Shown here: piece by piece, positions 25,090 to 63,919 of the stretch
Layout of the letters: each line of letters opens with the position of its first letter
Numbering within the stretch: the first letter of the stretch is position 1
DNA from: a virus
Lineage: Duplodnaviria; Caudoviricetes
Reading direction: 5' to 3' (one strand)
Virus record (IMG/VR): IMGVR_UViG_3300031414_000007
Span: 146,532 to 210,531 of that record
Length of the DNA stretch: 64,000 nucleotides
Notes under the pieces: model-generated
The model's database searches: none
Told to the model about the DNA's origin: nothing
Seen by the model: the letters and a program-made list of their open reading frames with translations, nothing else
Translations under genes and position numbers: made by a program

Positions 25090-25098
25090 AAAAATTAG
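25090..25098 (-). promoter_or_regulatory. CTAATTTTT late-type box
   Basis: Intergenic, before 25062. Confidence 0.6.
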
Positions 25099-25636: not shown

Positions 25637-25645
25637 TATTTACAG
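25637..25645 (-). promoter_or_regulatory. CTGTAAATA box upstream of the SLOG gene
   Basis: Exact motif only 6 nt from the ATG. Confidence 0.6.
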
Positions 25646-29144: not shown

Positions 29145-29152
29145 AAAATTAG
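29145..29152 (-). promoter_or_regulatory. CTAATTTT late-type box
   Basis: Intergenic, before the endolysin. Confidence 0.6.
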
Positions 29153-29154
29153 CG

Positions 29155-29997
29155 TTAGATGAACAAGTTTGTCTTCTTAAACTTCATCTTAGGGCGAGTG
29201 CCTGGGTCAGACACGATAGCCTCAAAATCGGTCGTATCGAGTTTGCAAAACGCACGGAAGTGAGGGCTGTAGAAGAACGCTTTGTCCAGCACAGGAGATT
29301 CATCAACACCTGTTTGAGTCTGAGCAAATACGCCATCATAAGACGGGAACGAAATGCCTGGCTGTCCATTAGCCCCACTTACCGTAGTAGATGTTGGGAG
29401 ACCCATCAACGCATACCCGAAATTTGGTGTTTCTGCGGCTGCGTATGTTCTGAATGTACAAGCACCAGTAGACCCACCAGCTGAGGCAGTAGTGGCCGCA
29501 GTCTCACCTGTCGCCCTTACATATCTAATACCGATGAATCCTGTAGCATACTGACCGTACGGGCAGTTACCGTCATGCAAATTCATTGGAGGTAATTGAA
29601 TCGGCTGCCCAGCAATCATACCGCTTGTCAAAAAGATAGTTGTTAGTCCACCTGACACAAGCAGCGAATAGGACTGAGCCGCAGCAATGCTACTGTTACC
29701 ACTAAGACCCCATGCGGTGTTCTGTTGAACAATATCCGTGTCATTGGTTAGGGCGACGGATGTGGCCTGTATGTATTTCAAGCAGGTGAAGTGGTACTTG
29801 TTTGACTTGCGGCCTCGAATGGGATTGAGAAATCCATTGAAGCCTAATACAGCCCGCGCCGTTCTGGCGAGTGCGTTGGCTTTTGTCATGTCTGTAAGCG
29901 TTGAGAAGTCTGAGGGTTCTCGACTATCATACAGAAAGACGTTTGGCATAGTGGGTGAGGGCCCAGCTAAGCCAGCGAATGAAGATATGTACTGCAT
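29155..29997 (-). CDS. Probable tail fibre/structural protein
   Basis: 280 aa rich in Gly/Thr/Ser/Ala; CTAATTT upstream. Confidence 0.4.
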   Translation of the reverse strand: MQYISSFAGLAGPSPTMPNVFLYDSREPSDFSTLTDMTKANALARTARAVLGFNGFLNPIRGRKSNKYHFTCLKYIQATSVALTNDTDIVQQNTAWGLSGNSSIAAAQSYSLLVSGGLTTIFLTSGMIAGQPIQLPPMNLHDGNCPYGQYATGFIGIRYVRATGETAATTASAGGSTGACTFRTYAAAETPNFGYALMGLPTSTTVSGANGQPGISFPSYDGVFAQTQTGVDESPVLDKAFFYSPHFRAFCKLDTTDFEAIVSDPGTRPKMKFKKTNLFI

Positions 29998-30044: not shown

Positions 30045-30052
30045 AAAATTAG
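30045..30052 (-). promoter_or_regulatory. CTAATTTT late-type box
   Basis: Intergenic, after a terminator and before 29997. Confidence 0.6.
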
Positions 30053-31142: not shown

Positions 31143-31466
31143 TTACTCCACCGTGTTAAGGGCTTGTGCCGTGTACTCACGCAGAGTACGTTCGATATTC
31201 TGCGCCAGCGTCGGGTGACAGATAAGCTGGTGGTCTTTCATGTACACACGCAGCGAAGGACGCATCACCTTGCGAACCTGTGGATAGAGACCGAAGATTT
31301 TATGCAGAGGAGTCTTGTAATAAAACTCCTCCTGCTCGTCCATGCAGTTAATGTTTGCCACAACTTCGTACTTGGCAAAGATAGCTGGGTTACGATTGAT
31401 GTACGCAGGTTCAATCGGCACACCGCCTTTCTCGTGATCGCTATTGAGATTACCGAAGATCATCAC
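31143..31466 (-). CDS. Hypothetical protein
   Basis: 107 aa, coupled to the sbcC stop. Confidence 0.6.
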   Translation of the reverse strand: MMIFGNLNSDHEKGGVPIEPAYINRNPAIFAKYEVVANINCMDEQEEFYYKTPLHKIFGLYPQVRKVMRPSLRVYMKDHQLICHPTLAQNIERTLREYTAQALNTVE

Positions 31467-33793
31467 ATTACCTTACGCGTTAACTTAGACACACCACCCT
31501 GCTTGGTGATAGTCCATTGATTGTCAGAGAAGTGCTCAACGTCCAGAGGAGTAATCCAATAAACGTTAGGAATGATTTGCTTGAGAATCGGGAGGAAATT
31601 CTTCACGATATGATCGCGTGTCGCATCACTACATGAGTTCTCAGGTTCATCGAGCACAATAAAGTTTGTACGTCGATTAGCAGGAATGAATGGCATGATC
31701 GCAACAGCAAACAACAAGCGGAAACAGTTTGTCTCTGCACCACTCATGATTGCAATGTCAGTCGTCTTCTTCGACACCAGACGAGTAACGGTTGCACCAA
31801 CACCCTGCTTGGTAGTAAACAGTTCGAAGTGCATAGGCTCAGGGAACACCAGACCAGAGTATTCGTTCAGCTTCTTCTCAATCTGTTTGAGACGGCCTTC
31901 AACCGCTTTCAGTTTGAGAGCATTGTTGCTGTACGCCTTATACAGGACTTCGAATACCTTGCGCTTGTCGATCAGAGGTTGCAGGTCTGCGAGCTTGTTG
32001 CGAAGTTCACGTAACGTTTCTTCGTAGTGTTCGTGCTCCTGAATGCGCATCTGGATGTTCTGCGCCTTACGCTCTTTCTTCTCAATGTCTGCGATCAGCT
32101 TCTCAACTTCGCCGCTAACCTTTTTGTACTCACCATCAATCAGATAGAACTCACGGTCAGGCTTACCAACGCCTTTGATTGCAGCACGAAGGTCTTTCAG
32201 AATCTCAAGATCCTTGATTCGGTTCTTGATTGTCTTACGGGCTTTCTTAGGCTGCTTAACCGCTTTAGGTTTCTTGAGCGCATCACGCTTGGCCACCAGC
32301 TTCTCATACTTCTTCGCTGTCTCGAACTGTTCTTCGATTTCATCCAGCTTAGTGCCGACTGCATTGAGTTGCTTTTCAAGGTCTTTACGTTTATGCTTCG
32401 GCTTCTTGACCTTCTCTGCCTGCAATTCAGTGAGCTGGTCATTCAGCTTGTAGTAGTCGAGAGCTTCGATGCACTCGTCAATGATCGACTGAGCTTTCGT
32501 TGCAGCGCGAGCCATAGCTTTAAGGTCAACATCTTGCCCACAGGTAGGACATGAGTTGCCGTCGTGATCGTGTTCCTGAAACGCACGATACGCCTGAACT
32601 ATTGCTTTGGATTCTGCGCGGGCATCTTGTGCCTCTTCCTGAGTTCGTTTAGGAGCTTTGAGCTTAGACAGCTTTTTACTGAGCTTGTCCACGGCTTCTC
32701 GCCAGTCGTCGTACTCTTCCTGTTGTTCATCGACTTTCTCCAGTAACGCTTCGAGGCTCTCTTCCTCTTTTATCAGTGCTCCGTGCTTCTTACGCAGCTT
32801 CTTGTTGTCAAGCGCCGCAACGTCACCGAGTGCTTTGATTTTCTTTTTGACTTCTGATAGCTCGGACTGATATTCGTCCAGTGCTTCCACAAAGTCATCG
32901 TAACGGTCATGCTCAATCAACAGACCACGTAAGGTATTCAGTTCACCTTTGAGATCGTCCGTCTCGATACCTAACGTGTCGAGTTCATGCTTGAGCTTCT
33001 CGTACTTCTTCGCGGTTGTGCGCTGAGTACCTAGTTCAATCAGGAGTTCCGACAGTTCGTTACGTTTGGCTTTCATCTTATCCGACTGCTTGATGATTGC
33101 AGTCAGCGTGTTCTTTTCTTCGGCGTGAATCGACAGCGCATTTTGTTTACGCTGTGTAACGTCCAGCATGTCCGCCAGACCTTTCGATTCTGTCTCGGCA
33201 TCTTTAGCCAAGTCCAGTTTCTTCTTCAACGCCGCACGAATGTTATCGAACACATCCAGATTGAATAACGAGGTCAGGTATTTTAAACGATCAGCAGGTT
33301 GCGCACGTTGGAAGGGATGCGGTATCTGCGACTGAATGTAGGCATAGCTGTAGAACTCGTCTTTCGACAACGGCCAATGCTTTGAGATCCACGAACGCGC
33401 TACGTCCTGACGACCTACCTTCTGGTCTTCACCGTTGTAATAAACTTTGTAGCTCTTGGCTGTTTGCTCGATACGAACAATACCGCCCAACGGAGATTGC
33501 CATGACAGATCGATAACGCTGCCCTTACTGAGCATGTTACCCTTGTCTTTCTTTTTCAGAGCGAGAGGGTCAGCTTCGTAAAGCAGCGTAGGTATTGCAC
33601 CGAACAGGAGACTTTTGCCTACGCCGTTCGTATTGTCTTTAACGTTTGGACTGTCGAGGTTTCTGCCGCAGATAGTTGCGAAGCCTTCACTGTCCAATGT
33701 GTCAATATCAAGTTCTTTGTACACACCAACATCGCGGAGATGAATCTCTTTTAATCCGATGCCGTGGTTCTGCTTTTGCTTCGCTTTGGCCAT
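31463..33793 (-). CDS. sbcC: SbcC/Rad50-like SMC ATPase
   Basis: Walker A NGVGKS, coiled coils, zinc hook CPTCG, signature MSGAE, Walker B IVLDEPE. Confidence 0.92.
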   Translation of the reverse strand: MAKAKQKQNHGIGLKEIHLRDVGVYKELDIDTLDSEGFATICGRNLDSPNVKDNTNGVGKSLLFGAIPTLLYEADPLALKKKDKGNMLSKGSVIDLSWQSPLGGIVRIEQTAKSYKVYYNGEDQKVGRQDVARSWISKHWPLSKDEFYSYAYIQSQIPHPFQRAQPADRLKYLTSLFNLDVFDNIRAALKKKLDLAKDAETESKGLADMLDVTQRKQNALSIHAEEKNTLTAIIKQSDKMKAKRNELSELLIELGTQRTTAKKYEKLKHELDTLGIETDDLKGELNTLRGLLIEHDRYDDFVEALDEYQSELSEVKKKIKALGDVAALDNKKLRKKHGALIKEEESLEALLEKVDEQQEEYDDWREAVDKLSKKLSKLKAPKRTQEEAQDARAESKAIVQAYRAFQEHDHDGNSCPTCGQDVDLKAMARAATKAQSIIDECIEALDYYKLNDQLTELQAEKVKKPKHKRKDLEKQLNAVGTKLDEIEEQFETAKKYEKLVAKRDALKKPKAVKQPKKARKTIKNRIKDLEILKDLRAAIKGVGKPDREFYLIDGEYKKVSGEVEKLIADIEKKERKAQNIQMRIQEHEHYEETLRELRNKLADLQPLIDKRKVFEVLYKAYSNNALKLKAVEGRLKQIEKKLNEYSGLVFPEPMHFELFTTKQGVGATVTRLVSKKTTDIAIMSGAETNCFRLLFAVAIMPFIPANRRTNFIVLDEPENSCSDATRDHIVKNFLPILKQIIPNVYWITPLDVEHFSDNQWTITKQGGVSKLTRKVM

Positions 33794-34241: not shown

Positions 34242-34250
34242 TATTTACAG
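34242..34250 (-). promoter_or_regulatory. CTGTAAATA box heading the sbcC operon
   Basis: Exact motif after a terminator. Confidence 0.7.
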
Positions 34251-35530: not shown

Positions 35531-36814
35531 TCACTTCTTCTTTTTCTTTTTCTTCTTAGGCTCGTCGTCTTCTTCGTCGTCGTTGCCTAAATCAACAGTC
35601 AACTTACCGCTGTAGATGTTCGCCATCACTTCGGTAATTCCAGTCTCCAGCATAATATCTGCCGGCACCGAAGTTGAGTTGAATGCCACTTCTGCATCAG
35701 CCAGAGCTTTCTGCAAATACACCAAACTGACCAGATTGACTTTGATGTTGTCTTTCTTGATCATGTTCATGAACATCTTGAGGCCCGCAGACTGCCACTT
35801 GTTCGTTTCGGCGTAATGCCCCAACACACCGTGAATAATCCAACGAGCTTTCGCTACGATTGCACGAGGGTTGTTTGCTTCCCGCAGGAACTGAATAACG
35901 CCTATCAGGTCCATACTGAGATAAGCACCGATCATCTGAACGGCTTTCGCTTCCATGTCGATTTCTGGATCAGCAGCAGCCAGTTCAGCAACGAGGTTCT
36001 TATCAAAGTCTTCACCACCACGAACAGAGGCGTAGATGTTTTGCAGCATGGTGATTGCACCACGCATTTGTCCACCAGCGTACTCTGCTACCTGATGAAG
36101 TGCCGCTTCTGCTTTATCACGCGCCTTGTCTTTCTTCGGCAGGATATCAAGCTGACCACTGATCTCAATCAGGCGTTTATGAATCACGTCAGTTGCAATC
36201 GGTCTGATCGGCAGTTGCGTCATACGACTGATCATCGTGCCTTTCATCTTCTCAGGGTTCGTTGTTACGAAGATGAAGACTACGTGCGCTGGAGGCTGTT
36301 CGGTAATCTTGAGCAGCTTGGATTCAGCAGCACTGGACATGAGGTGCGATTCATCGAAGATGAACACACGACGTTTGAACATAGGGCTTAACGGGGCCGA
36401 GTCAACAATCTTCTGTGAGCCTTCAACTTTACCTGCATCGCCGCCCATATCGAACTCTTGTTCGTCAGGATGTGCGCCACGGTCGTGCATCTCACACGAA
36501 CGACACTTACCGCAGGCGGAGAACGAATCGCAGTTGATGTACTTCGCAACCAGACGTGCGAACGTTGTCTTGCCTGAACCGAGATGACCTGTGATGATCA
36601 TTGTTGACGGAATCGTTTTCGACTTCTGCCAACCTTTCATGATCTTCACGATGTGGTCTTGACCAACGTAATCTTCGATACGCTTCGGTCGGAACTGATC
36701 TGCAAAGTTAACCGTGGTCAACTCAACAGACTCGGAAGAACCGCTTTTCTTTTTCGATGGCTTATCGTCACCGAACGAACGCGACTTCTTCTTTTTCTTT
36801 TCTTCTTTCGCCAT
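35531..36814 (-). CDS. dnaX: Clamp-loader ATPase, DNA Pol III gamma/tau-like
   Basis: QFRPKRIEDYVGQ, Walker A GHLGSGKTT, zinc site C...CGKCRSC, DESH, AESKLLKITEQPP. Confidence 0.9.
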   Translation of the reverse strand: MAKEEKKKKKSRSFGDDKPSKKKSGSSESVELTTVNFADQFRPKRIEDYVGQDHIVKIMKGWQKSKTIPSTMIITGHLGSGKTTFARLVAKYINCDSFSACGKCRSCEMHDRGAHPDEQEFDMGGDAGKVEGSQKIVDSAPLSPMFKRRVFIFDESHLMSSAAESKLLKITEQPPAHVVFIFVTTNPEKMKGTMISRMTQLPIRPIATDVIHKRLIEISGQLDILPKKDKARDKAEAALHQVAEYAGGQMRGAITMLQNIYASVRGGEDFDKNLVAELAAADPEIDMEAKAVQMIGAYLSMDLIGVIQFLREANNPRAIVAKARWIIHGVLGHYAETNKWQSAGLKMFMNMIKKDNIKVNLVSLVYLQKALADAEVAFNSTSVPADIMLETGITEVMANIYSGKLTVDLGNDDEEDDEPKKKKKKKK

Positions 36815-36850: not shown

Positions 36851-36859
36851 AATTTACAG
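36851..36859 (-). promoter_or_regulatory. CTGTAAATT box upstream of dnaX
   Basis: One-mismatch motif after a terminator. Confidence 0.6.
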
Positions 36860-37191: not shown

Positions 37192-37200
37192 TGTTTACAG
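37192..37200 (-). promoter_or_regulatory. CTGTAAACA box upstream of the 65-aa ORF
   Basis: One-mismatch motif. Confidence 0.55.
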
Positions 37201-37580
37201 TTTACTGTGAGTAGTCACACAAGGATAAAGTCAGACAAATCTTAAACTCCAATAGGCTCTCAATCAAGAACATATTGGAGTCCACCCTAGCCAGATGACG
37301 GTCTAGCCAGGGCTTTCTCCCCGTGTCTTTCAATTGCACCGACACGGTAGCGCTCGCGGTCTTACGCTCTCTGCGGCTTGCGAACATATCGGCAGGTAGC
37401 AGGGTTCGCAGCCTAGAGCAGCCGCTTTCGGCCATTAGCGATAACGCGGTGTTACGCTAGTTGGCCTGACTCTGTGGCCGAGTCTGTACAAAAAAGAGTT
37501 CGGCCTATCCCCAAATTCGGCAAAAGAAACAGGCCGAACTAAACAGTCAGCGCAAACTCCCTATGCACTGTTTTGTACTG
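37200..37580 (-). ncRNA. Candidate large structured non-coding RNA (about 380 nt)
   Basis: At least eight stems in a gene-free gap; G-U pairs fit the minus strand; CTAATTT motif at 37585-37591 just upstream. Confidence 0.55.
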
Positions 37581-37584
37581 TAAC

Positions 37585-37591
37585 AAATTAG
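37585..37591 (-). promoter_or_regulatory. CTAATTT late-type box before the candidate ncRNA
   Basis: No ORF follows; the structured region begins about 7 nt downstream. Confidence 0.5.
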
Positions 37592-40858: not shown

Positions 40859-40867
40859 AGTTTACAG
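40859..40867 (-). promoter_or_regulatory. CTGTAAACT box upstream of the 64-aa ORF
   Basis: Core CTGTAAA retained. Confidence 0.5.
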
Positions 40868-43014: not shown

Positions 43015-43406
43015 ATCATGATTACCTGATTTTTCTATCGTTTCTTTACAGTTTCAGACAACTCTTAACCCGAAAGCTACTACAGCGCTAATGCTAGGAA
43101 GGCTAAGGCTACAGCAGGCTTGCTACAACGCTCATGGCATGCTTCAACAATAGTTCTACAGGTACATCTTTAGGCGGCACGTTTCAGAGACATAGAAAAT
43201 AAAGAAACCATGTCCTCAGCAGCCCGAACTATAGTCCATACGCACTATAGGCAGCGATCTAGCGGAAATCCCTAGGTCGTCTAAACCGTGTAAATTTTCC
43301 GTCAAAAACAGTCCGTTTTTTAACCAAACGCCCTTTTTGACTCTGAAAATGAGGAAAATCCGAGAAAAATCAAGGACTTTCCCCTCTTTTGAAACGAAAA
43401 ATCAGA
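43015..43406. other. Non-coding locus with short repeats and helically phased A/T tracts; candidate replication origin or packaging site
   Basis: Six GCTA copies in 43076-43125, ACTATAG twice, eleven A/T tracts about 10.4 bp apart in 43292-43401. Confidence 0.45.
43043..43051 (-). promoter_or_regulatory. CTGTAAAGA box upstream of the PolA-fold gene
   Basis: Core CTGTAAA retained. Confidence 0.5.
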
Positions 43407-44075: not shown

Positions 44076-45185
44076 CTATCGAATTTTATAGCCTTTGAAA
44101 ATGTTATACGCAATCTCTTTGCGCTGTACGGGACGAGTGACGCACACCCATTCCCACTGATCGTTTTTCGCTGTGCGTTTCTTCGGTGCTTCCATAACTT
44201 TCAGCACGTAGTTTTTGAAAGGCAGAACGAGAATGTCTTCCGGCTCAATCGCGCCGCTGCGAGCAGGCAGAACTACCGTGATGTTGCCGACAGTCAGTTC
44301 CTGATCGTAGTTGAGCACGTTTGCTTCTTCGCTGATGTTGCCTTTAACAGGCGGAACACCTAAGTCAAAGATCATGGTGCAGTGCGTGAATGCCTCAATG
44401 CCTTTGACGCGAATCGTTACATGCTTGCCGCGCCAGCGTTCCAGATTCTCTGCTGTCAGATCGACTTCAACGCCGTTCACTAGCAGCATAGGACGTGGGA
44501 AAGCAGGAAGCAGAGTTTCATTCAGACGTACCGAATAAGTCGCCTGCGTAAAGTATTTTGGAATAAGCTGATCAAAATCAGCGTAGCCGTCTTTACGTAC
44601 CTGCCTGAATGTTGCGGGGCTGGTGGACTGATCAAGAGTATAGCCAGTCAGCTCTTTAATGTGATGATGCGTAGCGATGTTGTAGACAAAGCCAGTGCTG
44701 ATAAAGCCGGGCACAACACCCTGACGGAAACAGATACCGCAGTTCGCAACGTTGCCGCCGTCCCATTTAACGTCGAACTCCTCACCTGAGTCTACGCCCA
44801 TGATATCGGCTGCGTCCATAACGGCGTTCATGCCATCATCAATATCGTCGAGGGTTACTGCTTGACGTCCACCGCCAAACATGCCCTTGCCTACGGTATC
44901 GATCTTAACGCCGCCTGACATTGAATCAGATTCTCGGCCAAGGCTTTTCATGCCTGCCGGAATATTGTCCATAATGTCGTTCTCAACCTTGTTGCAACTA
45001 CAGGTGAGACCCATCTTCGCTTTCTTGAAGATGACAATATCGGTGGCGTCAACCGCAAGCGCCTGTTCGACTTTGGATTGCACGACCTTCTGAATACTGT
45101 CGAGGCGTTGCTGGACACGTTCAGTTTCGTAGGTCTTGTGCCTGTCATAGGTATTTCGTGGTCTCCCACGTTCAATCCAGCTCAT
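44076..45185 (-). CDS. Probable virion structural protein with CxC/CxxC motifs (possible neck/head-closure)
   Basis: 369 aa; CSC...CGICFRQG; CTAATTT upstream. Confidence 0.45.
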   Translation of the reverse strand: MSWIERGRPRNTYDRHKTYETERVQQRLDSIQKVVQSKVEQALAVDATDIVIFKKAKMGLTCSCNKVENDIMDNIPAGMKSLGRESDSMSGGVKIDTVGKGMFGGGRQAVTLDDIDDGMNAVMDAADIMGVDSGEEFDVKWDGGNVANCGICFRQGVVPGFISTGFVYNIATHHHIKELTGYTLDQSTSPATFRQVRKDGYADFDQLIPKYFTQATYSVRLNETLLPAFPRPMLLVNGVEVDLTAENLERWRGKHVTIRVKGIEAFTHCTMIFDLGVPPVKGNISEEANVLNYDQELTVGNITVVLPARSGAIEPEDILVLPFKNYVLKVMEAPKKRTAKNDQWEWVCVTRPVQRKEIAYNIFKGYKIR

Positions 45186-45208: not shown

Positions 45209-45215
45209 AAATTAG
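45209..45215 (-). promoter_or_regulatory. CTAATTT late-type box
   Basis: Intergenic, before 45185. Confidence 0.55.
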
Positions 45216-45284
45216 TGACTAAGAATTTAGGACCTTCTGCCTAGCAAATACTTATTTATAGCATGTTAAATCACGGAGCCTAAC

Positions 45285-46207: not shown

Positions 46208-46216
46208 CTGTAAATA
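46208..46216 (+). promoter_or_regulatory. CTGTAAATA box upstream of 46253
   Basis: Exact motif. Confidence 0.65.
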
Positions 46217-46252: not shown

Positions 46253-46945
46253 ATGGCGAAGTTGAAGAAAGAACAAAAGACAGTTGTGGCTAAAAAACCT
46301 GCGAAGGTCAAGCAGTCCAAAGCCGTCAAAACAAATAAAGGAAAAGCAGTAGCTATTCATGTTGTTCAGGACACGCGTCCGATTGTGCATTGCCCTGAAA
46401 TGGAAGACAAGCCTCAACCGTTTCGTTTTCGTGGCCAGTGCCCGATCACAACATGTCAGTATTGCACCCGCGAAACGCCCAACGGCTGCATGGCGCTTGA
46501 CCGCAAAGAAGCTGCCGACCGTTCAATCTCTAATAGGGAGATCGCTTATTACAAACGTGGCCTCTTCCCAGAACTCAAAGAGATGGATCAAAAGCAGTTG
46601 GACAATACGATTCGACGCGCACAAAATCGTACCCGTACTGCTATCTGTCTTACTATGTTTATTGCCGGGATTGATGATAGTGATTGCGATAGGTCTTTTC
46701 AGTATGTAGAAGGCCGCAGTCGCATTGTCGATCAGGTTCATAACTATCTGGTGCAAACGTTCAATGACTACCGTCCGTGGATGCTGGCGTATCTCGACGA
46801 CGAAGAACGTTTCTCTCAGATGGTAGGCAAGATAACCAATTCTGACTTTAATTTAGGTATGGCACTGCGGTTAACGCCTCGTAAGTATCAGACGTTCTGC
46901 CAGTCGCTGCAAAACCTTAAACAATCTGGAGACTCAAATGAGTGA
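46253..46945 (+). CDS. Hypothetical protein with Lys-rich N-terminus and Cys cluster
   Basis: 230 aa; CPITTCQYC...GC; CTGTAAATA upstream. Confidence 0.65.
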   Translation: MAKLKKEQKTVVAKKPAKVKQSKAVKTNKGKAVAIHVVQDTRPIVHCPEMEDKPQPFRFRGQCPITTCQYCTRETPNGCMALDRKEAADRSISNREIAYYKRGLFPELKEMDQKQLDNTIRRAQNRTRTAICLTMFIAGIDDSDCDRSFQYVEGRSRIVDQVHNYLVQTFNDYRPWMLAYLDDEERFSQMVGKITNSDFNLGMALRLTPRKYQTFCQSLQNLKQSGDSNE

Positions 46946-49640: not shown

Positions 49641-50699
49641 CTACTTTCCTTTCTTCTCTATTGCCTTTGGTCTATTCCACCCAAGTTCTTTCGCAGGCAT
49701 GATGCACTTCTTACCGTGAATATCACGCAGCGTCATACGAACTTCTTTGATCAACTTGAATGGTGCGTTGTCGGGGTCGAGCTTAATCAGCTTGCCGTCT
49801 TCATCAAACTCACGAGGTAGTTTAAAGTGCTTGACCGGTACTGGTGAGTTACGTTCAAATTCATCTTTGATCTTTGTGCGCAACAACTTCCCACCACCAT
49901 CGTTATCTGTCATCGTATAGACAACACTCACGCCAAGCATTTCAATCGTTCTGCGTTTCGTTTCACCAAACTGCTCTGCACCGAGAACAGCCAGCGCTGG
50001 TATTCCGTATGACAGGAGAGCCAGAGCATCTCGCGGACCTTCGACAAGAACGATGTAGCGCAACTTGTACTTCTTCAAACACTCTTTGACCAGAGGCAGT
50101 GGGAACAGGCCTTTGTCTTTTGCCCAATCGCCTTGCGAGTTCACATAGCTGGTGCCGTTCATTTGCTTACGCAGATAAGCTGCAATCCCACCTATGTATT
50201 TCGTTCCATGCTTACACGGAAAGAAACAAACGTTTGTGCCTGTATGCTGCGCATTAAGCAGACCACCAGCAGCACGAACAAGCGCACCCGGATATCCACG
50301 CCACTCAACATCAAGCGGCCACTCCATGTATGACTTACGTCCGAGTGCTTTCATCAATAGACCGACAGACGGATAGGTACCAATCTTCGAGCCAATCTGA
50401 TCATACGTTTTAAGCAAGGCACTGAGCGAGTTCGTTCCTGCGTCTTTTAACGCCCAGCCTTTGATCTCTTGCAGTCGAGCGTGAGCCGCTAATTTATTCC
50501 AGCCGCCTTTCTCGCCACAGCCGAAGCAGTGAAAGAATCCGAGTGGTATCTCCATGCCTACAGAAGTGTAAATACCACAACTAGGAGTCTTATCACTGTG
50601 GAACGGACAGCACACCATAACAGTGTCGCCGTTATATTTCTTCTCGCCCGGCAGTTTACCTATTTCGTCAAGAATTATCTGATGAACGTCTTCTGCCAT
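49641..50699 (-). CDS. dnaG: DnaG-type DNA primase
   Basis: Zinc finger CPFHSDKTPSC...CFGC; TOPRIM LVEGPRD and DNDGGG. Confidence 0.9.
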   Translation of the reverse strand: MAEDVHQIILDEIGKLPGEKKYNGDTVMVCCPFHSDKTPSCGIYTSVGMEIPLGFFHCFGCGEKGGWNKLAAHARLQEIKGWALKDAGTNSLSALLKTYDQIGSKIGTYPSVGLLMKALGRKSYMEWPLDVEWRGYPGALVRAAGGLLNAQHTGTNVCFFPCKHGTKYIGGIAAYLRKQMNGTSYVNSQGDWAKDKGLFPLPLVKECLKKYKLRYIVLVEGPRDALALLSYGIPALAVLGAEQFGETKRRTIEMLGVSVVYTMTDNDGGGKLLRTKIKDEFERNSPVPVKHFKLPREFDEDGKLIKLDPDNAPFKLIKEVRMTLRDIHGKKCIMPAKELGWNRPKAIEKKGK

Positions 50700-50738
50700 A
50701 CCATCCTCTGTCTATTTCGTAATTTACGCATATAAGCA

Positions 50739-50747
50739 TATTTACAG
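50739..50747 (-). promoter_or_regulatory. CTGTAAATA box upstream of primase
   Basis: Exact motif. Confidence 0.7.
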
Positions 50748-50764: not shown

Positions 50765-51100
50765 ATGGGTAACCAGCATCGTTATGTAGCTTCGGTAGAA
50801 CGTCGCTTTTATGGACCTCAATGGTTGGCGCTATGCGACCTGATTAAGGTAGAGCCTCAGACGTGTGGTGCGTTCGCAAAGAACGGCCATATGATGGGAC
50901 TGACTCTGCCTAAAGAGTTTGATGTTGAAGCTGCAACAAAGAGCCTGCGCCTTGTCTACGCAGTCAAGGAAGAAGACGTGGCCGTGCGCTGTTACCTGTT
51001 CGGTACTCGCTACTACAAGTTCGTTTTCTTTGAACAAACAATTGCCGTAAGCGAGGATGATTATGAGAACGTTCGCAAACGTACCAGCGCGAGTCAATGA
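50765..51100 (+). CDS. Hypothetical protein
   Basis: 111 aa, divergent from primase. Confidence 0.55.
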   Translation: MGNQHRYVASVERRFYGPQWLALCDLIKVEPQTCGAFAKNGHMMGLTLPKEFDVEAATKSLRLVYAVKEEDVAVRCYLFGTRYYKFVFFEQTIAVSEDDYENVRKRTSASQ

Positions 51101-57299: not shown

Positions 57300-57326
57300 T
57301 AGCGGTGGCCTTGGGCTGCCGCTTTT
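57300..57326 (+). terminator. Intrinsic terminator after acb1
   Basis: AGCGGTGGCC-TT-GGGCTGCCGCT followed by TTT. Confidence 0.65.
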
Positions 57327-57346: not shown

Positions 57347-57664
57347 ATGAAAATCTATGTAAGCCTTTCCCATGAGATTCGCGTTGGTCGTCAAGACTCT
57401 GATCAAGTTGATGTGCTTGAAACAACTGATGGCCAGAGACGTGCTGTTGAGCAACAAGAGAAAGAGCGCATTGTTGAAGAATATGGCATCGACACCCCTA
57501 AGGAGGAGATTGACGAAAAAGAGAAGGAACGCATTGAGCGCGAAGAGGAAAAGCGCGACGAAAACAAGACCAAAGCACCGGAAGATTTGGGTCAGCGTAA
57601 GCCGGAATCTGAACTCACTGGTTCTGAGATTCAAGACCAGCATGATAACCTGACAAAGATCTAG
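57347..57664 (+). CDS. Tagged small acidic protein
   Basis: Start moved to ATG 57347 (MKIYVSLSH) after GGAG; Glu-rich. Confidence 0.65.
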   Translation: MKIYVSLSHEIRVGRQDSDQVDVLETTDGQRRAVEQQEKERIVEEYGIDTPKEEIDEKEKERIEREEEKRDENKTKAPEDLGQRKPESELTGSEIQDQHDNLTKI

Positions 57665-57668
57665 GAAT

Positions 57669-57677
57669 CTGTAAATA
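57669..57677 (+). promoter_or_regulatory. CTGTAAATA box upstream of the sigma factor
   Basis: Exact motif. Confidence 0.7.
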
Positions 57678-57697
57678 AGAGTCAAAGCAACTAACAG

Positions 57698-58747
57698 GTG
57701 TATTTGACCATGAACAATAAGTCGAATCTCACAGGCGGTCAGATAGAAAGCGTCATGGACACAATGCTTCATGACTGCCTGCGTGAGATTGTTGAGAACA
57801 CGGACATATTCGATGTGCAACTGACCTATCTGTTGAACATGATTACGTCGAATAAAAAGCGAAAGCCGTACAACGCTGAGACGCGGGACCGTGCTATCAG
57901 CCTTCTGATTAAGGCGCTGTCTGTGCCTCGCGATCAGAAAATGATTTATATCCAGGAGCTTAAAATGGAGCGTAACTTCATTTACGTCTTCCTGGAAAAT
58001 GTAATTAAGCGATACTACACAACGTATGTAGATCTCTATCGGGGTTTCATTTCGACGCAAGATGCTGTTAAGCGCGAAGCGTATTCGAAACGCCTGAATG
58101 CCTACGTGAAGATGTTTGGGGCAGAGTCTCGCTCCAAACTCTTTATCGCGTTGTGTCGTTTGAACGATCTTCTGCCGCAGTTCATGGAATACTTCCACTC
58201 GGTAGTTGCTGACTTCTATAGACTATGCAGCAAGCAAACAAAATTTTATGTTGATACGAACCGCGGTAAGCTGTATGACAGCAAAGACGTGCGCCAGAAC
58301 TTCCTGCGCAACGTTATCGTGGCTATCAACAAGTATGACTCCTCTCGCGGTGCGATTGTGAGTTATACGAAGTGGTGGATCTTGAACGCCCAAACCTGTA
58401 GTAGCAGCGAGCATGAATACGGCATCGCTTATACTATTCCCCAGACTCAACGTAAGAAACTGGCGACAGGTGAAGATACCACTTCTCTGAATTTCTCGGT
58501 AAGTCTCGATACTCCTGCGAACGAATCTGATGAAGGTGCGGACGCGTCCCTACATCAAAAAGTGAGTGACCATCATCACTTAGAAGATCACGTAGATAGT
58601 GAAAGACGTACTGAAAAACTGAGGCTGCTTATTAAGCGCGTAGACCCACTCGGCGTTGCACGATTGACGATGGATGTGGGTGAGGAGTTCGATAAGTTCG
58701 AACTTGATATGATGCGCAAACATATGCAGGCTCAAGGGCTAGCCTAA
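57698..58747 (+). CDS. Phage sigma70-family factor lacking region 4
   Basis: DVRQNFLRNVIVAINKYDSSRGAIVSYTKWWI matches region 2.2-2.4; SLDTP matches the region 3.2 entry; the protein ends about 75 aa later with no HTH. Start may be ATG 57710. Confidence 0.75.
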   Translation: MYLTMNNKSNLTGGQIESVMDTMLHDCLREIVENTDIFDVQLTYLLNMITSNKKRKPYNAETRDRAISLLIKALSVPRDQKMIYIQELKMERNFIYVFLENVIKRYYTTYVDLYRGFISTQDAVKREAYSKRLNAYVKMFGAESRSKLFIALCRLNDLLPQFMEYFHSVVADFYRLCSKQTKFYVDTNRGKLYDSKDVRQNFLRNVIVAINKYDSSRGAIVSYTKWWILNAQTCSSSEHEYGIAYTIPQTQRKKLATGEDTTSLNFSVSLDTPANESDEGADASLHQKVSDHHHLEDHVDSERRTEKLRLLIKRVDPLGVARLTMDVGEEFDKFELDMMRKHMQAQGLA

Positions 58748-58749: not shown

Positions 58750-58758
58750 CTGTAAACA
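58750..58758 (+). promoter_or_regulatory. CTGTAAACA box upstream of SSB-recA
   Basis: One-mismatch motif. Confidence 0.6.
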
Positions 58759-58796: not shown

Positions 58797-60059
58797 ATGG
58801 CACGTGGATTTGGTGACATTCAAGATAACAGCAAACGCGATAGTTTGCGTGAATCAGAAATCTTTGAAATCTTCCCGCTGGCGAAGAAAGCAAACGGCAA
58901 CTGGGTTTCAATTCGTCTGTTAGATCTCGACCTGCTTCCGATTAAGAAGCACTGGATCAAGATCATGGGCGGGAAAGACAAAGACAAAGAGATCAAAATC
59001 CCGCGCATGTGCGTTAGCTTCGACCCGGACAATCAGAACAAACCTCTGAACGGTATGAAGTGTCCGTACTGCGGCATCGCTCACGGCAACGACGAATCTG
59101 GTGCACCGGCGCAGTACGACTATAAGTGGTACGCACAGGCAATCATTCGTGACGAGCAGGCTGCTGCGCCGCGTAAAATGCCGAAGATGACCAAGAAAGA
59201 AGAGAAGTCCGGCAAGAAAGAAATGGGCAGCGAGTCTTGGACTCCTGTGCAGTGTATTCCTCTGTCTAACTCTCTGGCTGGTAAAATCCGCGAGCTGGGT
59301 GAACGTAATATTCACACGGTCAAAGACAAAAAGTCTGGCAAGAAGTCTAAGCAGGCGTTTCAGGTTAACCATCCGAAGTATGGCTGCGATATTGAAATCA
59401 AATACAACGCCAAAAAATCTCCGGCAGAGCGTTACACCATCGAACGTGGCGATCATACTCCACTGACGAAAGAAGAACAGGCGTACCTGACCTGGGACTT
59501 CGACAACTGGAACGAAATCTACGACATGCTGGGCCGTCTGAACGAAGAAGCTGCTATGGCTGACTTCAAGAAGATGGACGTTATCGGCGTTAACACCAAC
59601 GATTCTGACGATGGTGATGACGATGACGATGACGACGATGCTATGGCGCTGGGCCGCAAAAAGAAAGGCGGCAAAGCGGACAAGAAAAAACGTCGCAGCG
59701 ATGATGACGATGACGACGAAGATGACGACGATGATGAAGATGATCGTCCTTCCAAGAAGTCTAAAAAGGCGACCAAGTCTCGTAAGATGTTAGACGATGA
59801 CGAGGACGATGACGACGAAGACGACGAAGATGATCGTCCGTCGAAGAAAAAGAAATCTTCGAAAGACAAAAAGTCCTCGAAGGTTAAGTCTAAGAAGTCT
59901 AAGAAGTCAGATGATGACGACGAAGACGACGAAGACGAAAAGCCTAAGAAGAAGAAAAAGTCTTCTGACAAGGTGAAGTCTTCCGTTAAGAAGAAAAAGA
60001 AATCTTCTGACGACGATGACGACGACGCGCCGAAGAAAAAGAAGAAAAAGAAAAAGTAA
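58797..60059 (+). CDS. T4 gp32-like single-stranded DNA-binding protein with long Asp/Lys block tail
   Basis: IRLL, KKHWIK, C...CPYC, WYAQAIIRD, YGCDIEIK; sits between sigma and recA. Confidence 0.7.
   Translation: MARGFGDIQDNSKRDSLRESEIFEIFPLAKKANGNWVSIRLLDLDLLPIKKHWIKIMGGKDKDKEIKIPRMCVSFDPDNQNKPLNGMKCPYCGIAHGNDESGAPAQYDYKWYAQAIIRDEQAAAPRKMPKMTKKEEKSGKKEMGSESWTPVQCIPLSNSLAGKIRELGERNIHTVKDKKSGKKSKQAFQVNHPKYGCDIEIKYNAKKSPAERYTIERGDHTPLTKEEQAYLTWDFDNWNEIYDMLGRLNEEAAMADFKKMDVIGVNTNDSDDGDDDDDDDDAMALGRKKKGGKADKKKRRSDDDDDDEDDDDDEDDRPSKKSKKATKSRKMLDDDEDDDDEDDEDDRPSKKKKSSKDKKSSKVKSKKSKKSDDDDEDDEDEKPKKKKKSSDKVKSSVKKKKKSSDDDDDDAPKKKKKKKK
59601..60056 (+). repeat. Low-complexity coding region of alternating poly-Asp/Glu and poly-Lys blocks
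   Basis: GAY-rich and AAG-rich blocks; DDEDDRPSKK occurs twice. Confidence 0.85.
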
Positions 60060-60067
60060 TGTGAAAC

Positions 60068-60094
60068 AGGGTGGCTAACGCCGCCCTTTCTTTT
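60068..60094 (+). terminator. Intrinsic terminator after SSB
   Basis: GGGTGGC-TAAC-GCCGCCC followed by TTTCTTTT. Confidence 0.7.
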
Positions 60095-60116
60095 CTCTAA
60101 TCTGGACCACCCAACA

Positions 60117-62645
60117 ATGGCGAAAACGAACAACAAGGCTGAGAAGAAAGCTGAGAAGAAAGCTAAAGTCAAAGCCGGTAAGACAAAAGGCAAAGCAGTC
60201 GCCTCTGATGATATTGGCGGCGTAGAAGTAGCAGGCTTTGACCTTGGTAGTCTGATGGACGATGTGCTCGACGGCATCGAGAAGAAAACGAAAGTAAGCT
60301 CACAGGACGCAGCGCGACACGCACCTCGTATCTCTACTGGTGTGCTTGCGCTTGATATGTACCTTGACGGCGGCATCGTACCTGGCGGCTGGTATACTTT
60401 CAGCGGCGGTGAGCAGTCCTGTAAGTCAACAATGACCATGAGTATCATGGCGAGCCTGATTCGTCTGAAATACTCTGGCATTAGCGTAGTGTTCGACTAC
60501 GAAGGTTCTACTGATGCTGACTACGTTGCTGGCCAGCTCAAAACGTTTGGCGTTACTGTTGACGCGAAGACCATCTTTGGTGTGCGTGACGGTGACGACG
60601 GCAACTGGATTATCAAACCGCGTATTCGCTACTACGCGCCGGACAACGGTGAGCGCTTCTTCGATTATATGTCGATGTTGCGTCGTCGTCTGCCTGATAA
60701 GATCGTCGATAAAGACGGTAGCTCGTACTACATCTTTGAGAACAACAAAGAGAACGCCAAGAAGGTTGCTGGCAAGTACGATAAGAAGTGGTTCAGCCGT
60801 AACAACCAGTTCAAAGTTCCTGCGTCTGACGGTCACATGCAGGCTATGGTTATCGTTGACTCCTATCCTGCGATGATGCCGGATCAGGTCGATGATGACG
60901 ATGGCTCAAAAGCAATGGCACTGCAAGCGCGTATGTTCTCTGACGGCATCAAACGTTTCCGTGGCGGTATGCGTCGTAAGATGATGACTATCGTTGGCGT
61001 TAACCAGTTGCGTCAGAAACCTGCTGTGATGTTCGGTAGCCCTGAGTATGAGCCAGGCGGTGATGCGTTGAAGTTCTATTGCTTCGACCGTGACACTCTG
61101 ATTCGTACCAACCACGGCGTGATGACTGCCCCTGATATTGCGCAACTGCTGAAAGACGGCGTTAAAGTTTGCGTTGAATCGTTCGATGGTTATCAGCAAA
61201 TCAATGGCGCATGGAAAGTTGAAGACGCCCCGTTCCCAATCGAACTGTCTGCTGGCGGCCATAGTTACATCGGTAGTGCGGAGCACCGTCAGTTTGTTCT
61301 GGTACCTGGCGTAACTGCTGATGGCACGAATGTGTTCTATCCTGAGTGGCGTACTCTGAACGAGATGGCTACTGGTGGGCACGAAGGCGTATACGCTGGT
61401 CTGCGTGTCCCGCCTGTCAAAGAACTGAAACAGAACGTACCTGATGCGTTCGATGAAGCAAGCCAGCTTGTAAGCAGTCTGCTTGCTAACTGCGATCCGG
61501 TAAGCGTTCAACTGCCTCTGGCTGCGCACGGTGATACTACCTATGCAGCGAACGTGCTGACCATTGACGTAGTTGGTGAGAGCACTGATTCTTCCGACTT
61601 CTCGTTCTGGGCTAAGAAGCTGCTGGACATTGGCGTATTCGCTTACGCTGATGAACGTGGTATTCACATGCCTGGTCTGAACAAGCATGAGCTGGAAGAA
61701 GCTGTTGCGCAGGATGCTGACGGTGCGTTCCGTGGTCTGTCTTATGCCGCCACCTGTCGTCAACGTCAAACGCAGATGCTGATTGCTATTGCTGATCGCT
61801 TCCCGGAACTGACTCGCTATGTTCTGGACTATCAGTTGCAGGTAGGCGAAGCTAAAATCTATCTGGCTCCAGAGAACGACTTTGCCGAAGCGCTTGACCT
61901 GATTCTGCATCGTGAGATTGACGGGTACGATGACCTGTACGATCTGCTGATGCAGCAACTGGCTTACGTTGAAGACTGGTACAACTTCGATAGCTCTATC
62001 TTGCCTGTGCCGTTCTCGCTGAAAGTGCTGAACAAAGAAGTTGAGTTCTGGGATGTTAACGTTGCCGAGACTTCTGTGGTTATCACCAACGGCTTCGTAT
62101 CGCATAATAGTGATGTGCGCGTTCGTCTGGCTTCTCGTGCAGTACCTGATGCAGGCTGGACAAAACTCAAAGACGCACCTGGTGTTGTCGGTGAGAAGTC
62201 TGTCACTATTGAGGGCGGTACTGACCGCTATCGTTTCATTGCTGCTAAGACCATCAAGAACAAGATGGGTGGCATCCCGAACCAGCAGACTTGGTTGCGT
62301 CTGTGGGAAGCTGACGGTAATGGTGAAGCGCGCGGCTTCGACCCTGTGTTCGATACGTGGCACTATCTGAAAGTTCTCGGCCTGATCAACGGCACACGTA
62401 AGAGCTTTAAGATCAAAGCGCCTTGCCCTCTGGCTTCCGAAGTCAAGATGGACTGGGATGACTTCCGCACTCTTATCAACGGCACCAAGACACAAGTTGT
62501 CGATGTGTGTAAGAAGCTGAAAGTCAAACCTGCCGGCCTGCGTCTGTGGTGCTTCAAGTTCGTGCAATCTGCGAAAGGCAAAGAAATGTTGAAAGCGTCT
62601 ATCAGTAAGTCTGCGAAGACTTCTGGTGATGAAGACGACGAGTAA
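60117..62645 (+). CDS. recA: RecA/UvsX recombinase containing an intein
   Basis: ISTGVLALD, GGEQSCKST, VIVDS, VNQLRQK, GGDALKFY / SDVRVRL, KTIKNK. Confidence 0.9.
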   Translation: MAKTNNKAEKKAEKKAKVKAGKTKGKAVASDDIGGVEVAGFDLGSLMDDVLDGIEKKTKVSSQDAARHAPRISTGVLALDMYLDGGIVPGGWYTFSGGEQSCKSTMTMSIMASLIRLKYSGISVVFDYEGSTDADYVAGQLKTFGVTVDAKTIFGVRDGDDGNWIIKPRIRYYAPDNGERFFDYMSMLRRRLPDKIVDKDGSSYYIFENNKENAKKVAGKYDKKWFSRNNQFKVPASDGHMQAMVIVDSYPAMMPDQVDDDDGSKAMALQARMFSDGIKRFRGGMRRKMMTIVGVNQLRQKPAVMFGSPEYEPGGDALKFYCFDRDTLIRTNHGVMTAPDIAQLLKDGVKVCVESFDGYQQINGAWKVEDAPFPIELSAGGHSYIGSAEHRQFVLVPGVTADGTNVFYPEWRTLNEMATGGHEGVYAGLRVPPVKELKQNVPDAFDEASQLVSSLLANCDPVSVQLPLAAHGDTTYAANVLTIDVVGESTDSSDFSFWAKKLLDIGVFAYADERGIHMPGLNKHELEEAVAQDADGAFRGLSYAATCRQRQTQMLIAIADRFPELTRYVLDYQLQVGEAKIYLAPENDFAEALDLILHREIDGYDDLYDLLMQQLAYVEDWYNFDSSILPVPFSLKVLNKEVEFWDVNVAETSVVITNGFVSHNSDVRVRLASRAVPDAGWTKLKDAPGVVGEKSVTIEGGTDRYRFIAAKTIKNKMGGIPNQQTWLRLWEADGNGEARGFDPVFDTWHYLKVLGLINGTRKSFKIKAPCPLASEVKMDWDDFRTLINGTKTQVVDVCKKLKVKPAGLRLWCFKFVQSAKGKEMLKASISKSAKTSGDEDDE
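61080..62108 (+). mobile_element. Intein (343 aa) inserted after ALKFY of RecA
   Basis: Starts CFDRDTLIRT (Cys1); block B SAEH; block F/G FWDVNV...TNGFVSHN followed by Ser+1. Confidence 0.88.
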
Positions 62646-62694: not shown

Positions 62695-63117
62695 ATGCGT
62701 ACTCAAATCTTTACCGCTGATATTGTTAACCTGCAAACGACCACAACCAACGAAGAAACAGGCGAAGAGATTGTCACACAAACAATCGTGCCTAACGTCG
62801 AAGGTGAACTGACAATCAGTGTTGGTGAACTGTCTCGTCTGTCTGAAAGTCTGAGCGAGCCTACCGACGCTGACTGCCGCCTGATTGTTATCGTGTCTCC
62901 TGATGCGACACCTGTGTTCTACGACGAAGCGCTGTCCAGTTACTTCGACCCAATCGAGCGCGTCGCTGATATTCAGGCAGGCAACATCGGCACCATCAAC
63001 GGTCTGCAAGTCATCCGCGGCCTGCAGGGCGATCACCCTTACGTTGCAGTTGTCGAAGTACGTGACGCTGATACCGTAGAGATCGTTCGCTACAACGCGT
63101 CTGTAGTAAAACTGTAA
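62695..63117 (+). CDS. Hypothetical protein
   Basis: 140 aa, AAGGAG RBS. Confidence 0.65.
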   Translation: MRTQIFTADIVNLQTTTTNEETGEEIVTQTIVPNVEGELTISVGELSRLSESLSEPTDADCRLIVIVSPDATPVFYDEALSSYFDPIERVADIQAGNIGTINGLQVIRGLQGDHPYVAVVEVRDADTVEIVRYNASVVKL

Positions 63118-63120
63118 ATA
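63112..63120 (+). promoter_or_regulatory. CTGTAAATA box upstream of the repeat-containing leader
   Basis: Exact motif overlapping the upstream stop. Confidence 0.6.
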
Positions 63121-63217: not shown

Positions 63218-63919
63218 ATGAAAAAGATTCAGACTAACATTTTACCCACCGAAGCCCTGCACGGACTAATCCACGGGTACGCGCGTCACGCCAAACAGCC
63301 TGACGCTGCGAACAAGACGTTGTTCTATGTTGACGTCACTGAACGCAGTGCTAACGATGCACTGTACTCTATTCTTCGCCGCGATATTCCTTCAAACATC
63401 ATCGGTACTGCCTACGATTGTCTTGTTGGTTTCCGTGGACATACAGCTCCTGCTCAACTTCCCATCGTGCTGTCGGAGAGTTTATATCACATAGGTTTGG
63501 ATAGACTCGCTAGTTCCCTGGCTGGAATTTTTGACGCTCTCGGCCGTACCGTGCATACTAACGACACGCAGATCACTATTTACGGTGAACCTGCAATTGA
63601 GAAACTTCTGTCTATTGTTCGAGATACGCAGTTTAAGAGTTTCTTGGAAGTGTGCAACCCTGAACTTGCTTGTGGTGACTTCGACCTACAGTCCAATATC
63701 ACTGTAGACAACTTTGTGTCTATGGCAATCGACCCGGACTTTGAAAAGCGTATTCCTGATAGCCCCGGGACCACCTATACATTTGGTCGTGACTTCATGT
63801 TTATGCACTATGAAGACCTGCATAAAGTTATTCAGATGCTGCGTAAATATAAAAAGAATTGCACCCTGCATCCTGATTTGATGCGCTACTATTTCATGAA
63901 CGTAATCTGTAAATACTGA
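63218..63919 (+). CDS. Hypothetical protein
   Basis: 233 aa, AGGAG RBS. Confidence 0.65.
   Translation: MKKIQTNILPTEALHGLIHGYARHAKQPDAANKTLFYVDVTERSANDALYSILRRDIPSNIIGTAYDCLVGFRGHTAPAQLPIVLSESLYHIGLDRLASSLAGIFDALGRTVHTNDTQITIYGEPAIEKLLSIVRDTQFKSFLEVCNPELACGDFDLQSNITVDNFVSMAIDPDFEKRIPDSPGTTYTFGRDFMFMHYEDLHKVIQMLRKYKKNCTLHPDLMRYYFMNVICKY
63907..63915 (+). promoter_or_regulatory. CTGTAAATA box at the end of the last gene
   Basis: Exact motif followed by hairpins and a terminator. Confidence 0.5.

Follow-up and report, generated by a model that had tools for sequence, protein, structure and literature searches.

Two putative single-box promoter classes and a pair of sigma-like proteins in a clade of giant phages

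How does a giant phage without an evident RNA polymerase direct the enzyme of its host to successive sets of genes? Most jumbo phages have no RNA polymerase of their own, and the programming of the host enzyme is almost unstudied outside T4. The question is raised here by the last 64 kb (the window) of a 210.5-kb viral contig (G000), in which one gene encodes a sigma-like protein, termed sigma1 below, and two short sequences recur upstream of genes: box A (full form aaTCTGTAAATA, core CTGTAAATA) and box B (full form cgCTAATTT, core TAATTT). The closest relative of this DNA is Erwinia phage pEa_SNUABM_30 (Alexandravirus, 259.8 kb, NC_061446.1; 96.8% identity), and other Alexandraviruses and Dickeya phage AD1 are 84-87% identical to the window; by sequence identity, the phage is an Alexandravirus, an Erwinia jumbo phage. 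No RNA polymerase genes are listed in the RefSeq annotation of pEa_SNUABM_30, and the phage therefore presumably relies on the host enzyme. We compared the window and contig with five complete genomes that were fetched for this purpose, those of Dickeya phage JA29, phage NCTB, Pseudomonas phages Lu11 and PaBG, and Vibrio phage GR7B (MT366760.1). Together, the observations below appear to suggest that the two boxes are putative promoters, for middle and late genes respectively, the late one read by sigma1 and the other by a second phage protein, a reading to which, taken as a whole, we give about an even chance.

Both boxes emerged from an analysis that used no prior motifs. K-mer enrichment in the 70 nucleotides (nt) upstream of all genes of the 210-kb contig placed (A)ATCTGTAAATA and (C)GCTAATTT at the top, and the third signal consisted of the loops and T-runs of terminator hairpins. 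Both boxes have the same orientation as the next gene and lie 30-50 nt 5' of its start (medians of about 45 nt for box A and about 37 nt for box B). Site alignments in seven genomes were informative only to three bases adjoining the boxes, and a dyad enrichment aimed at a third, two-part (-35/-10) promoter class returned terminator hairpins only. Because the positions upstream of either box carry no information, no -35 element is present, as had been remarked in a preliminary description of this DNA. Among the sites preceding a gene start, the minimum distance from box to ATG is 26 nt, which leaves no room for a -10 element further downstream; the boxes themselves therefore appear to be the -10-type elements. 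At 7 nt past box A, the distance expected for a start site, an A is over-represented. In both boxes TAA occupies the presumed positions -12 to -10 and is followed by A/T-rich bases; the two share the core TAAWTW, whereas their upstream extensions differ (aatCTG for box A, acgC for box B). In the sigma70 -10 element, T-12, A-11 and T-7 are the best-conserved positions; the core of box B, TAATTT, retains all three, whereas box A (TGTAAATA) has no T at the position equivalent to -7. Box A (TGTAAA) presumably resembles the -10 element of E. coli sigmaE, a likeness that we do not use as evidence.

The fairly constant distance from box to start codon would also suit signals of another kind in 5' leaders, acting on RNA or DNA, such as processing sites or translational repressor sites. 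We consider this very improbable, since many boxes stand immediately past intrinsic terminators, several of them only a few bases past the hairpin, where a new transcription start is needed. Moreover, the boxes are A/T-rich, -10-like, strictly co-oriented with genes and split by gene function, and the annotated relative has no RNA polymerase of its own, yet the phage encodes sigma-like proteins that need cognate promoters.

Box A stands out by number as well as by position. Exact matches to its core CTGTAAATA number 12 in the window, where chance predicts 0.37 (12 was reached in 0/100 shuffles), and 24 in the 210-kb contig; the preliminary description had counted 11 in the window and had likewise judged them to exceed chance. 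Intergenic DNA, which makes up 7.5% of the window, holds eight of the 12 (binomial P = 4e-7), and 10 of the 12 lie 12-110 nt 5' of a start codon on the same strand. Copies with one mismatch occupy promoter positions at 36851-36859, 37192-37200, 40859-40867, 43043-43051 and 58750-58758, to which CTATAAATA at 45253-45261 may be added; these agree with the five near-matches noted before. The genes of this class in the window encode the clamp, DNA polymerase, an HNH endonuclease, SbcD, the SbcC operon, the clamp loader, primase, sigma1 and SSB/UvsX. The box A sites and associated genes, other than those at the sigma1 locus, are as follows.

2988-2996, minus strand: box A, 45 nt 5' of the sliding-clamp (processivity factor) gene 1773-2951
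6417-6425, minus strand: box A, just past a terminator, 48 nt 5' of the DNA polymerase gene 3207-6377
15756-15764, minus strand: box A, 31 nt 5' of the HNH-endonuclease gene 15368-15733
23127-23135, minus strand: box A, past a terminator, 38 nt 5' of the SbcD-like gene 22024-23097
25637-25645, minus strand: box A, 5' of gene 25121-25630 (GTP-binding-domain protein)
34242-34250, minus strand: box A, heading an operon whose last gene is SbcC-like (31463-33793)
36851-36859, minus strand: box A variant CTGTAAATT, 45 nt 5' of the clamp-loader gene 35531-36814
46208-46216, plus strand: box A, 45 nt 5' of gene 46253-46945
50739-50747, minus strand: box A, 48 nt 5' of the primase gene 49641-50699
58750-58758, plus strand: box A variant CTGTAAACA, 47 nt 5' of the SSB gene
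58797-60059, plus strand: SSB gene, A class (PHROG search and annotation of relatives)
60117-62645, plus strand: UvsX/RecA-like recombinase gene, downstream of SSB in the same putative A-driven unit (Pfam/PHROG)
63112-63120, plus strand: box A, 106 nt 5' of gene 63218-63919; another copy at 63907-63915

Box B is marked by its placement. CTAATTT has 10 copies in the window, in number no significant excess over the 6.4 expected (10 was reached in 15/100 shuffles); eight of the 10 are intergenic (P = 4e-8), the number of intergenic positions reported before, and all eight are on the minus strand, like the next genes downstream.

17481-17487, minus strand: box B, 36 nt 5' of gene 16651-17451; at -35 to -38 in the JA29, NCTB and Lu11 orthologues
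21093-21099, minus strand: box B, 45 nt 5' of gene 19771-21054
21975-21981, minus strand: box B, 5' of gene 21230-21907
25092-25098, minus strand: box B, past a terminator, 36 nt 5' of gene 23176-25062
29146-29152, minus strand: box B (CGCTAATTT), with its CTAATTT core 33 nt 5' of the endolysin gene 28547-29119; at -36 in the JA29 orthologue
30046-30052, minus strand: box B, past a terminator, 5' of gene 29155-29997
37585-37591, minus strand: box B, heading an ORF-free stretch (no open reading frame, ORF) of about 380 nt, a candidate non-coding RNA
45209-45215, minus strand: box B, 30 nt 5' of gene 44076-45185 (PHROG 21298)
50719-50727, plus strand: B-like box GTAATTTAC, 45 nt 5' of gene 50765-51100

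In the window this class comprises the endolysin and eight genes or regions without an assigned function, and the operon of gene 19771-21054 continues into a gene labelled head-tail connector in pEa_SNUABM_30. Outside the window, B boxes stand 5' of a PAAR gene and of the portal, major capsid-region and tail-tube operons, as named in the relative's annotation. The preliminary description had proposed two single-box classes with distinct gene sets, replication and recombination on one side and virion and lysis on the other. As putative promoters, the two classes and their functional split stand, and the virion part of the second set is documented mainly outside the window.

Three of these places show further features. 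The ORF-free stretch (37200-37590, minus strand, about 380 nt) is G+C-rich, with the B box directly before it and the box A variant at 37192-37200 at its end; it is without an Rfam match, and Rfam and tRNA scans of the whole 64-kb window gave zero matches. The sequence CTATAAATA (45253-45261, minus strand) includes a perfect T4 late box, TATAAATA, and is followed after 38 nt by the B box at 45209-45215, both preceding one and the same gene. At 50719-50747 the B-like GTAATTTAC (plus strand) and the CTGTAAATA of primase (minus strand) stand back to back with a gap of 12 nt; the long plus-strand operon that runs from there to the terminator before sigma1 may therefore be of the late class.

Both boxes recur in related phages, though less strongly in Vibrio phage GR7B. 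In JA29, NCTB, Lu11 and PaBG, blind k-mer analysis again put the cores CTGTAAA and TAATTT on top; in Vibrio phage GR7B the A core was on top and a B-like ACTAATT was enriched only. Orthologous genes keep their box class across the six genomes compared. Among A-class genes, that for DNA polymerase is preceded by the box at -34 to -48 in 5/6 genomes (at -34 to -46 in JA29, Lu11, PaBG and GR7B), that for primase at -26 to -56 in 5/6, and that for SSB in JA29, NCTB and GR7B. Box B precedes the PAAR gene at -29 to -45 in 5/5 genomes and homologues of window gene 44076-45185 at -27 to -71 in 6/6. An exact count of CTAATTT had made box B seem unconserved in Lu11, NCTB and PaBG, which was an artefact of an over-strict pattern; in all three, the upstream regions of genes are enriched in the TAATTT core preceded by G/C-T. 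Further away, box A is still TCCTGTAAATA in Xanthomonas phage PhiXhv-12, where the TAATTT box is not evident, and becomes GGTAAAT(A/G) in P. putida phage Peetri, where the TAATTT box is not obvious. GR7B has a third repeated upstream motif, TTCTGGTATAATGGAAG, of the extended -10 type (6-9 copies), which probably marks its early promoters.

The gene for sigma1 is itself preceded by box A, in keeping with what had been described before: the CTGTAAATA core at 57669-57677 begins 41 nt before the ATG at 57710.

57301-57323, plus strand: strong intrinsic-terminator-like hairpin (10-bp stem, T run), closing the upstream plus-strand operon
57347-57664, plus strand: small ORF of 105 amino acids (aa), very acidic, directly upstream of sigma1
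57666-57677, plus strand: box A (AATCTGTAAATA), directly 3' of the small-ORF stop codon
57710-58747, plus strand: sigma1, 345 aa (PHROG 17569, E = 6e-156), with an alternative GTG start at 57698

The small ORF has zero Pfam or PHROG matches; a small ORF is also annotated at this place, before sigma1, in Yoloswag and JA29. The arrangement of A box and sigma1 is the same in pEa_SNUABM_30, JA29 and Yoloswag. NCTB and PaBG have no separate A box for sigma1 within 7 kb, and a promoter directly before sigma1 is therefore not universal. The order sigma-SSB-UvsX (RecA) is kept in Yoloswag, JA29, NCTB, PaBG and Lu11.

What kind of sigma factor is sigma1? The Pfam Sigma70_r2 profile matches it below threshold (E = 0.052; 13.8 bits vs 24). 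Its family comprises 229 homologues, many on contigs of 200-310 kb, and a profile of 38 of these, searched against the PDB, found region 2 of SigA, HrdB and SigB only (best E = 1.4e-3). Against E. coli RpoD, hhalign aligned residues 161-238 with 375-449 (E = 9e-5); in this alignment sigma70 residues Y430, W433, W434 and T440 are conserved, the WW pair being the melting aromatics, and a segment of region 2.3-2.4, KWWILNAQT, is nearly invariant in the alignment of homologues. An AlphaFold2 (AF2) model (pLDDT 80.5) superposed residues 4-234 on sigma70 111-446 with Z of 12-16 and a root-mean-square deviation of 3.3-4.5 over about 223 residues, and the top rows were all sigma70 chains. The aligned part comprises regions 1.2 and 2.1-2.4 with a reduced non-conserved region between them. 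The ORF is genuine, and profile and predicted fold place sigma1 firmly in the sigma70 family as a member with a full domain 2, the part that serves to recognise and melt the -10 element. Sequence identity to the JA29, NCTB and Lu11 proteins is 71, 40 and 35%, and orthologues in the five genomes range from 26 to 71%.

Beyond region 2, the predicted layout of sigma1 continues with an acidic disordered linker (residues about 232-289; modelled with low confidence, with a conserved NFSVSLD...LH) and a C-terminal module of three helices. These last 55 residues form three short, confidently modelled helices with a conserved LLxKxVDPxGxARL motif, and in GR7B and Peetri the protein stops after DPxGxAR. 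Region 4, with its 4.2 helix-turn-helix, was detected neither by Pfam nor by hhalign, which stops at RpoD 449, nor by inspection; PF04545 has zero matches in the contig or in pEa_SNUABM_30. The protein had been called region-4-less, and this holds for the -35-reading helix-turn-helix (Pfam, hhalign); the term misses the conserved C-terminal helical module, which is kept. In protein-atlas features, residues 236-345 lean to viral r3/r4 clusters at 0.86, a lead only, and the C-terminus is possibly a truncated remnant of region 4.1. The missing helix-turn-helix fits promoters that have no -35 element.

A second sigma factor elsewhere in the genome had also been supposed, and this is probably right. 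The candidate lies outside the window.

G000 7539-8678: second sigma-like gene, equivalent to gp329 of pEa_SNUABM_30 and a homologue of PaBG gene 112

The PaBG protein, gp112, has been described as a doubtful second sigma on the basis of HHpred similarity to SigmaE (PMC7412058). Sequence profiles find no sigma in the second protein, and no further Pfam Sigma70_r2 or r4 match exists in the genome. Its AF2 model, from an alignment of 79 relatives, has a pLDDT of 92; the top Foldseek rows were extracytoplasmic function (ECF) sigmas at E = 0.2. With VIA-align, residues 148-237 resembled sigma domain 2 and residues 288-379 domain 4, at Z of 6-7, under the tool's comfort line of 8, the matches being ECF sigmas, sigma28, SigA domain 4 and 1sig. 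Protein-atlas features scored 0.95 to viral Sigma70_r2 clusters, and by inspection the C-terminal consensus LAxWLxVSVxxVxxGLxTLRxxL has the look of a region 4.2 recognition helix. The modelled fold suggests that this protein is probably a sigma factor. Its family is divergent, with 28% mean column identity and 46, 21 and 29% identity to the JA29, NCTB and Lu11 members. Its gene and that of sigma1 occur together in 9/9 genomes, including those of the distant Peetri and PhiXhv-12.

The operon of the second sigma-like gene carries an A box (G000 4518) and a perfect extended -10 element, TGATATAAT (G000 4578); in PaBG, TTGACT-N-TGCTACAAT stands in front of the corresponding operon. At G000 4518-4870 the boxes are followed by an ORF-free leader of about 290 nt and then by the operon, which contains topoisomerase-like and second sigma-like genes. 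In pEa_SNUABM_30, 7/7 intergenic TGnTAnAAT sites fall in a block of small genes at 210-255 kb, all on the plus strand. This block is likely to be the early region, and is mostly missing from the 210-kb contig.

Which protein, then, reads which box? In the model that we favour, two sigma-like proteins of the phage would steer host RNA polymerase to promoters of two classes, each consisting of one -10-type box. Host sigma70 would first read extended -10 early promoters, including that of the operon of the second sigma-like protein, and this protein would then bring core RNA polymerase to A boxes. Box A would thus mark middle genes, those for replication, recombination, repair and sigma1, so that sigma1 would be made in the middle phase. 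Sigma1 would then direct the core enzyme to B boxes, which would mark late genes, those for the virion, for lysis and for some non-coding RNAs. We regard the assignment of sigma1 to the late box B and of the second protein to box A as evenly balanced between right and wrong. The order offered in the preliminary description, a sigma made from an A box that then fires box B, is the one that we also favour, with moderate confidence and on indirect grounds.

These grounds are three. The A box is the sole evident promoter of sigma1 in Alexandravirus, Yoloswag and JA29, insulated by a terminator in the window, which would create a bootstrapping problem if A boxes were read by sigma1 alone. The operon of the second protein has a host-type extended -10 promoter. 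Finally, TAATTT keeps T-12, A-11 and T-7, and sigma1 keeps the corresponding sigma70 residues.

Several points weigh against this assignment. Sigma1 is better conserved than the second protein, and box A is conserved more deeply than box B, which would fit sigma1 reading A equally well. A sigma for late genes can be made earlier than those genes are read: in T4, expression of gene 55 precedes late transcription. The promoter before a sigma gene is therefore weak evidence for the target of that sigma. The second protein has a region-4-like helix-turn-helix, yet both box classes lack a -35 element, and its assignment as a sigma depends on modest Z scores without a sequence-level match. The RNA runs that contain this stretch come from wastewater libraries only and exist as assembled contigs, from which neither start sites nor strand nor expression level can be read.

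Some of these points lead to the opposite assignment, in which sigma1 would read box A, boosting its own synthesis after a host-driven or read-through trickle, and the second protein would read box B. The A core persists in Lu11, PaBG, NCTB, GR7B and PhiXhv-12, so that box A and sigma1 would be the most conserved partners, KWWILNAQT being near-invariant against a mean column identity of 28% in the second family; moreover, a promoter directly before sigma1 is not universal, as NCTB and PaBG show. Against this, sigma1 would have to be bootstrapped in Alexandravirus, Yoloswag and JA29, where its only evident promoter is an A box behind a terminator; in addition, TGTAAATA has no T equivalent to -7 and box B has one, and it is the operon of the other sigma that has the host-type promoter. 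We therefore consider the opposite assignment possible but rather unlikely. The phyletic pattern was tried as a discriminator between the two assignments and rejected, as no tested genome lacks either sigma-like gene.

A third arrangement would have one phage sigma reading both boxes through TAAWTW, with the classes split by the upstream extensions and by another factor or the state of the DNA, for example replication-coupled activation as in T4, and with a different role for the second protein. Both boxes do have TAA at the presumed -12 to -10 followed by A/T-rich bases, the second protein's sigma assignment is only moderately supported, and the A class includes genes for a phage clamp ('DNA polymerase processivity factor', PHROG 947) and for a clamp loader. 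For a coupling of sigma1 to the clamp, which the preliminary description had suggested as possible, we obtained no evidence; a complex prediction of the clamp dimer (1773-2951) with sigma1 residues 286-345 gave a score of 0.00 in a run without controls, and speaks neither for nor against a coupling of the two. The PaBG counterpart of the clamp has been described as DNA polymerase III beta (PMC7412058). The two sigma-like genes are found together in 9/9 genomes, a constant pairing that fits one reader per class, and no gp33-like co-activator was found (PHROG 254). A single reader for both classes is accordingly, in our view, improbable. We thus return to the model with sigma1 on box B and the second protein on box A, and compare it with known systems.

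Like T4 late transcription, the model combines the host core enzyme, a sigma without a -35-reading region 4 and a lone A/T-rich, -10-type box; the T4 late box TATAAATA differs from box A TGTAAATA at one position. This T4-like box marks replication genes here and virion genes in T4, however, and gp55 has 185 aa, whereas sigma1 has 345 and consists of a region 1.2, non-conserved region and region 2 like those of group-1 sigma70 proteins, followed by the C-terminal module. A kinship with gp55 did not hold up: the hhalign probability was 0.4%, PHROG 234 and 12791 (gp55) had zero matches in G000 or NC_061446, and PHROG 254 (gp33), whose members are small and divergent, had zero in the contig or pEa_SNUABM_30 and zero in a search of four related genomes. 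Orthologues of gp33 have been reported for 'group 2' jumbo phages generally (Iyer et al., PMC7824862). Judged by profile and predicted fold, sigma1 is by descent a trimmed RpoD-like protein, not a gp55.

In its logic the model is closest to SPO1, in which successive phage sigmas (gp28 for middle, gp33/gp34 for late genes) displace the host sigma on the host core and so define early, middle and late promoters; SPO1 middle and late promoters have two boxes, -35 and -10, whereas both classes here have one. Extended -10 promoters of sigma70 are also similar in that initiation needs no -35 contact and uses extra bases just upstream of the -10 hexamer. They differ in that the TG of box A abuts TAAATA directly (TGTAAATA), in place of TGnTATAAT, and in that a phage protein is presumed to read it; genuine TGnTAnAAT sites stand apart, in the presumed early region.

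The nearest precedent is Lu11, which has the same box (AAAACTGTAAATAC), a sigma1 orthologue of 35-36% identity and the same sigma-SSB-RecA order. Its GenBank record (JQ768459) labels AAAACTGTAAATAC sites 'putative middle/late promoter', lumping middle and late as one class; we found 33 exact copies there against 2 for a reversed control. Box A is therefore not new in the clade, as the Lu11 record already annotates CTGTAAATA in this way. The RpoD-like sigma of the Lu11/PaBG/Y3 group is likewise on record (PMC7412058, PMC7824862). A literature search for the box sequence found no phage paper, and the papers searched, which did not include the Lu11 genome note and the Y3 paper, gave no description of a separate TAATTT class, of the split by gene class or of conservation across genera. 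Known before were thus the annotation of a sigma, box A in Lu11 and a second, doubtful sigma in PaBG, whereas the B class, the functional split with its cross-genus conservation, the domain anatomy of sigma1, the structural support for a second sigma and the consistent co-occurrence of both proteins appear to be new here.

In its general form, which we advance tentatively and rate slightly below an even chance, the proposal is that a clade of giant phages infecting Erwinia, Dickeya, Pseudomonas, Vibrio and Xanthomonas has a fixed pair of sigmas and two single-box promoter classes, with region 4 of sigma1 shrunk to a module that does not read DNA; in function sigma1 would then resemble gp55 and gp33 in one chain, evolved independently from an RpoD-like ancestor. 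Such a system would be compact, with two short boxes, two sigma-like proteins and clear targets such as DNA polymerase and the endolysin, and its sequence features are kept across hosts as distant as Erwinia and Pseudomonas. It would provide a natural example of a primary-type sigma losing -35 recognition, as well as portable pairs of promoter and sigma that are independent of a -35 element. Knowledge of the promoters would also allow hundreds of functionally unassigned genes in anti-fire-blight phages to be placed in time at once.

Two genes downstream of sigma1 have unusual features of their own. The SSB gene (58797-60059) encodes a C-terminal tail of about 150 residues in which poly-Asp/Glu runs alternate with poly-Lys runs, and the opposite strand yields a long spurious poly-Ser/Phe ORF (59519-60481). 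The UvsX/RecA-like gene (60117-62645) encodes 842 aa, vs about 500 aa in JA29, NCTB, PaBG and Lu11; the gene in Yoloswag is of similar length. The RecA match of the protein falls in two stretches, and the insert between them starts with ...KFYCFDRDT and finishes with ...GFVSHNS, so that from its sequence it looks like an intein.

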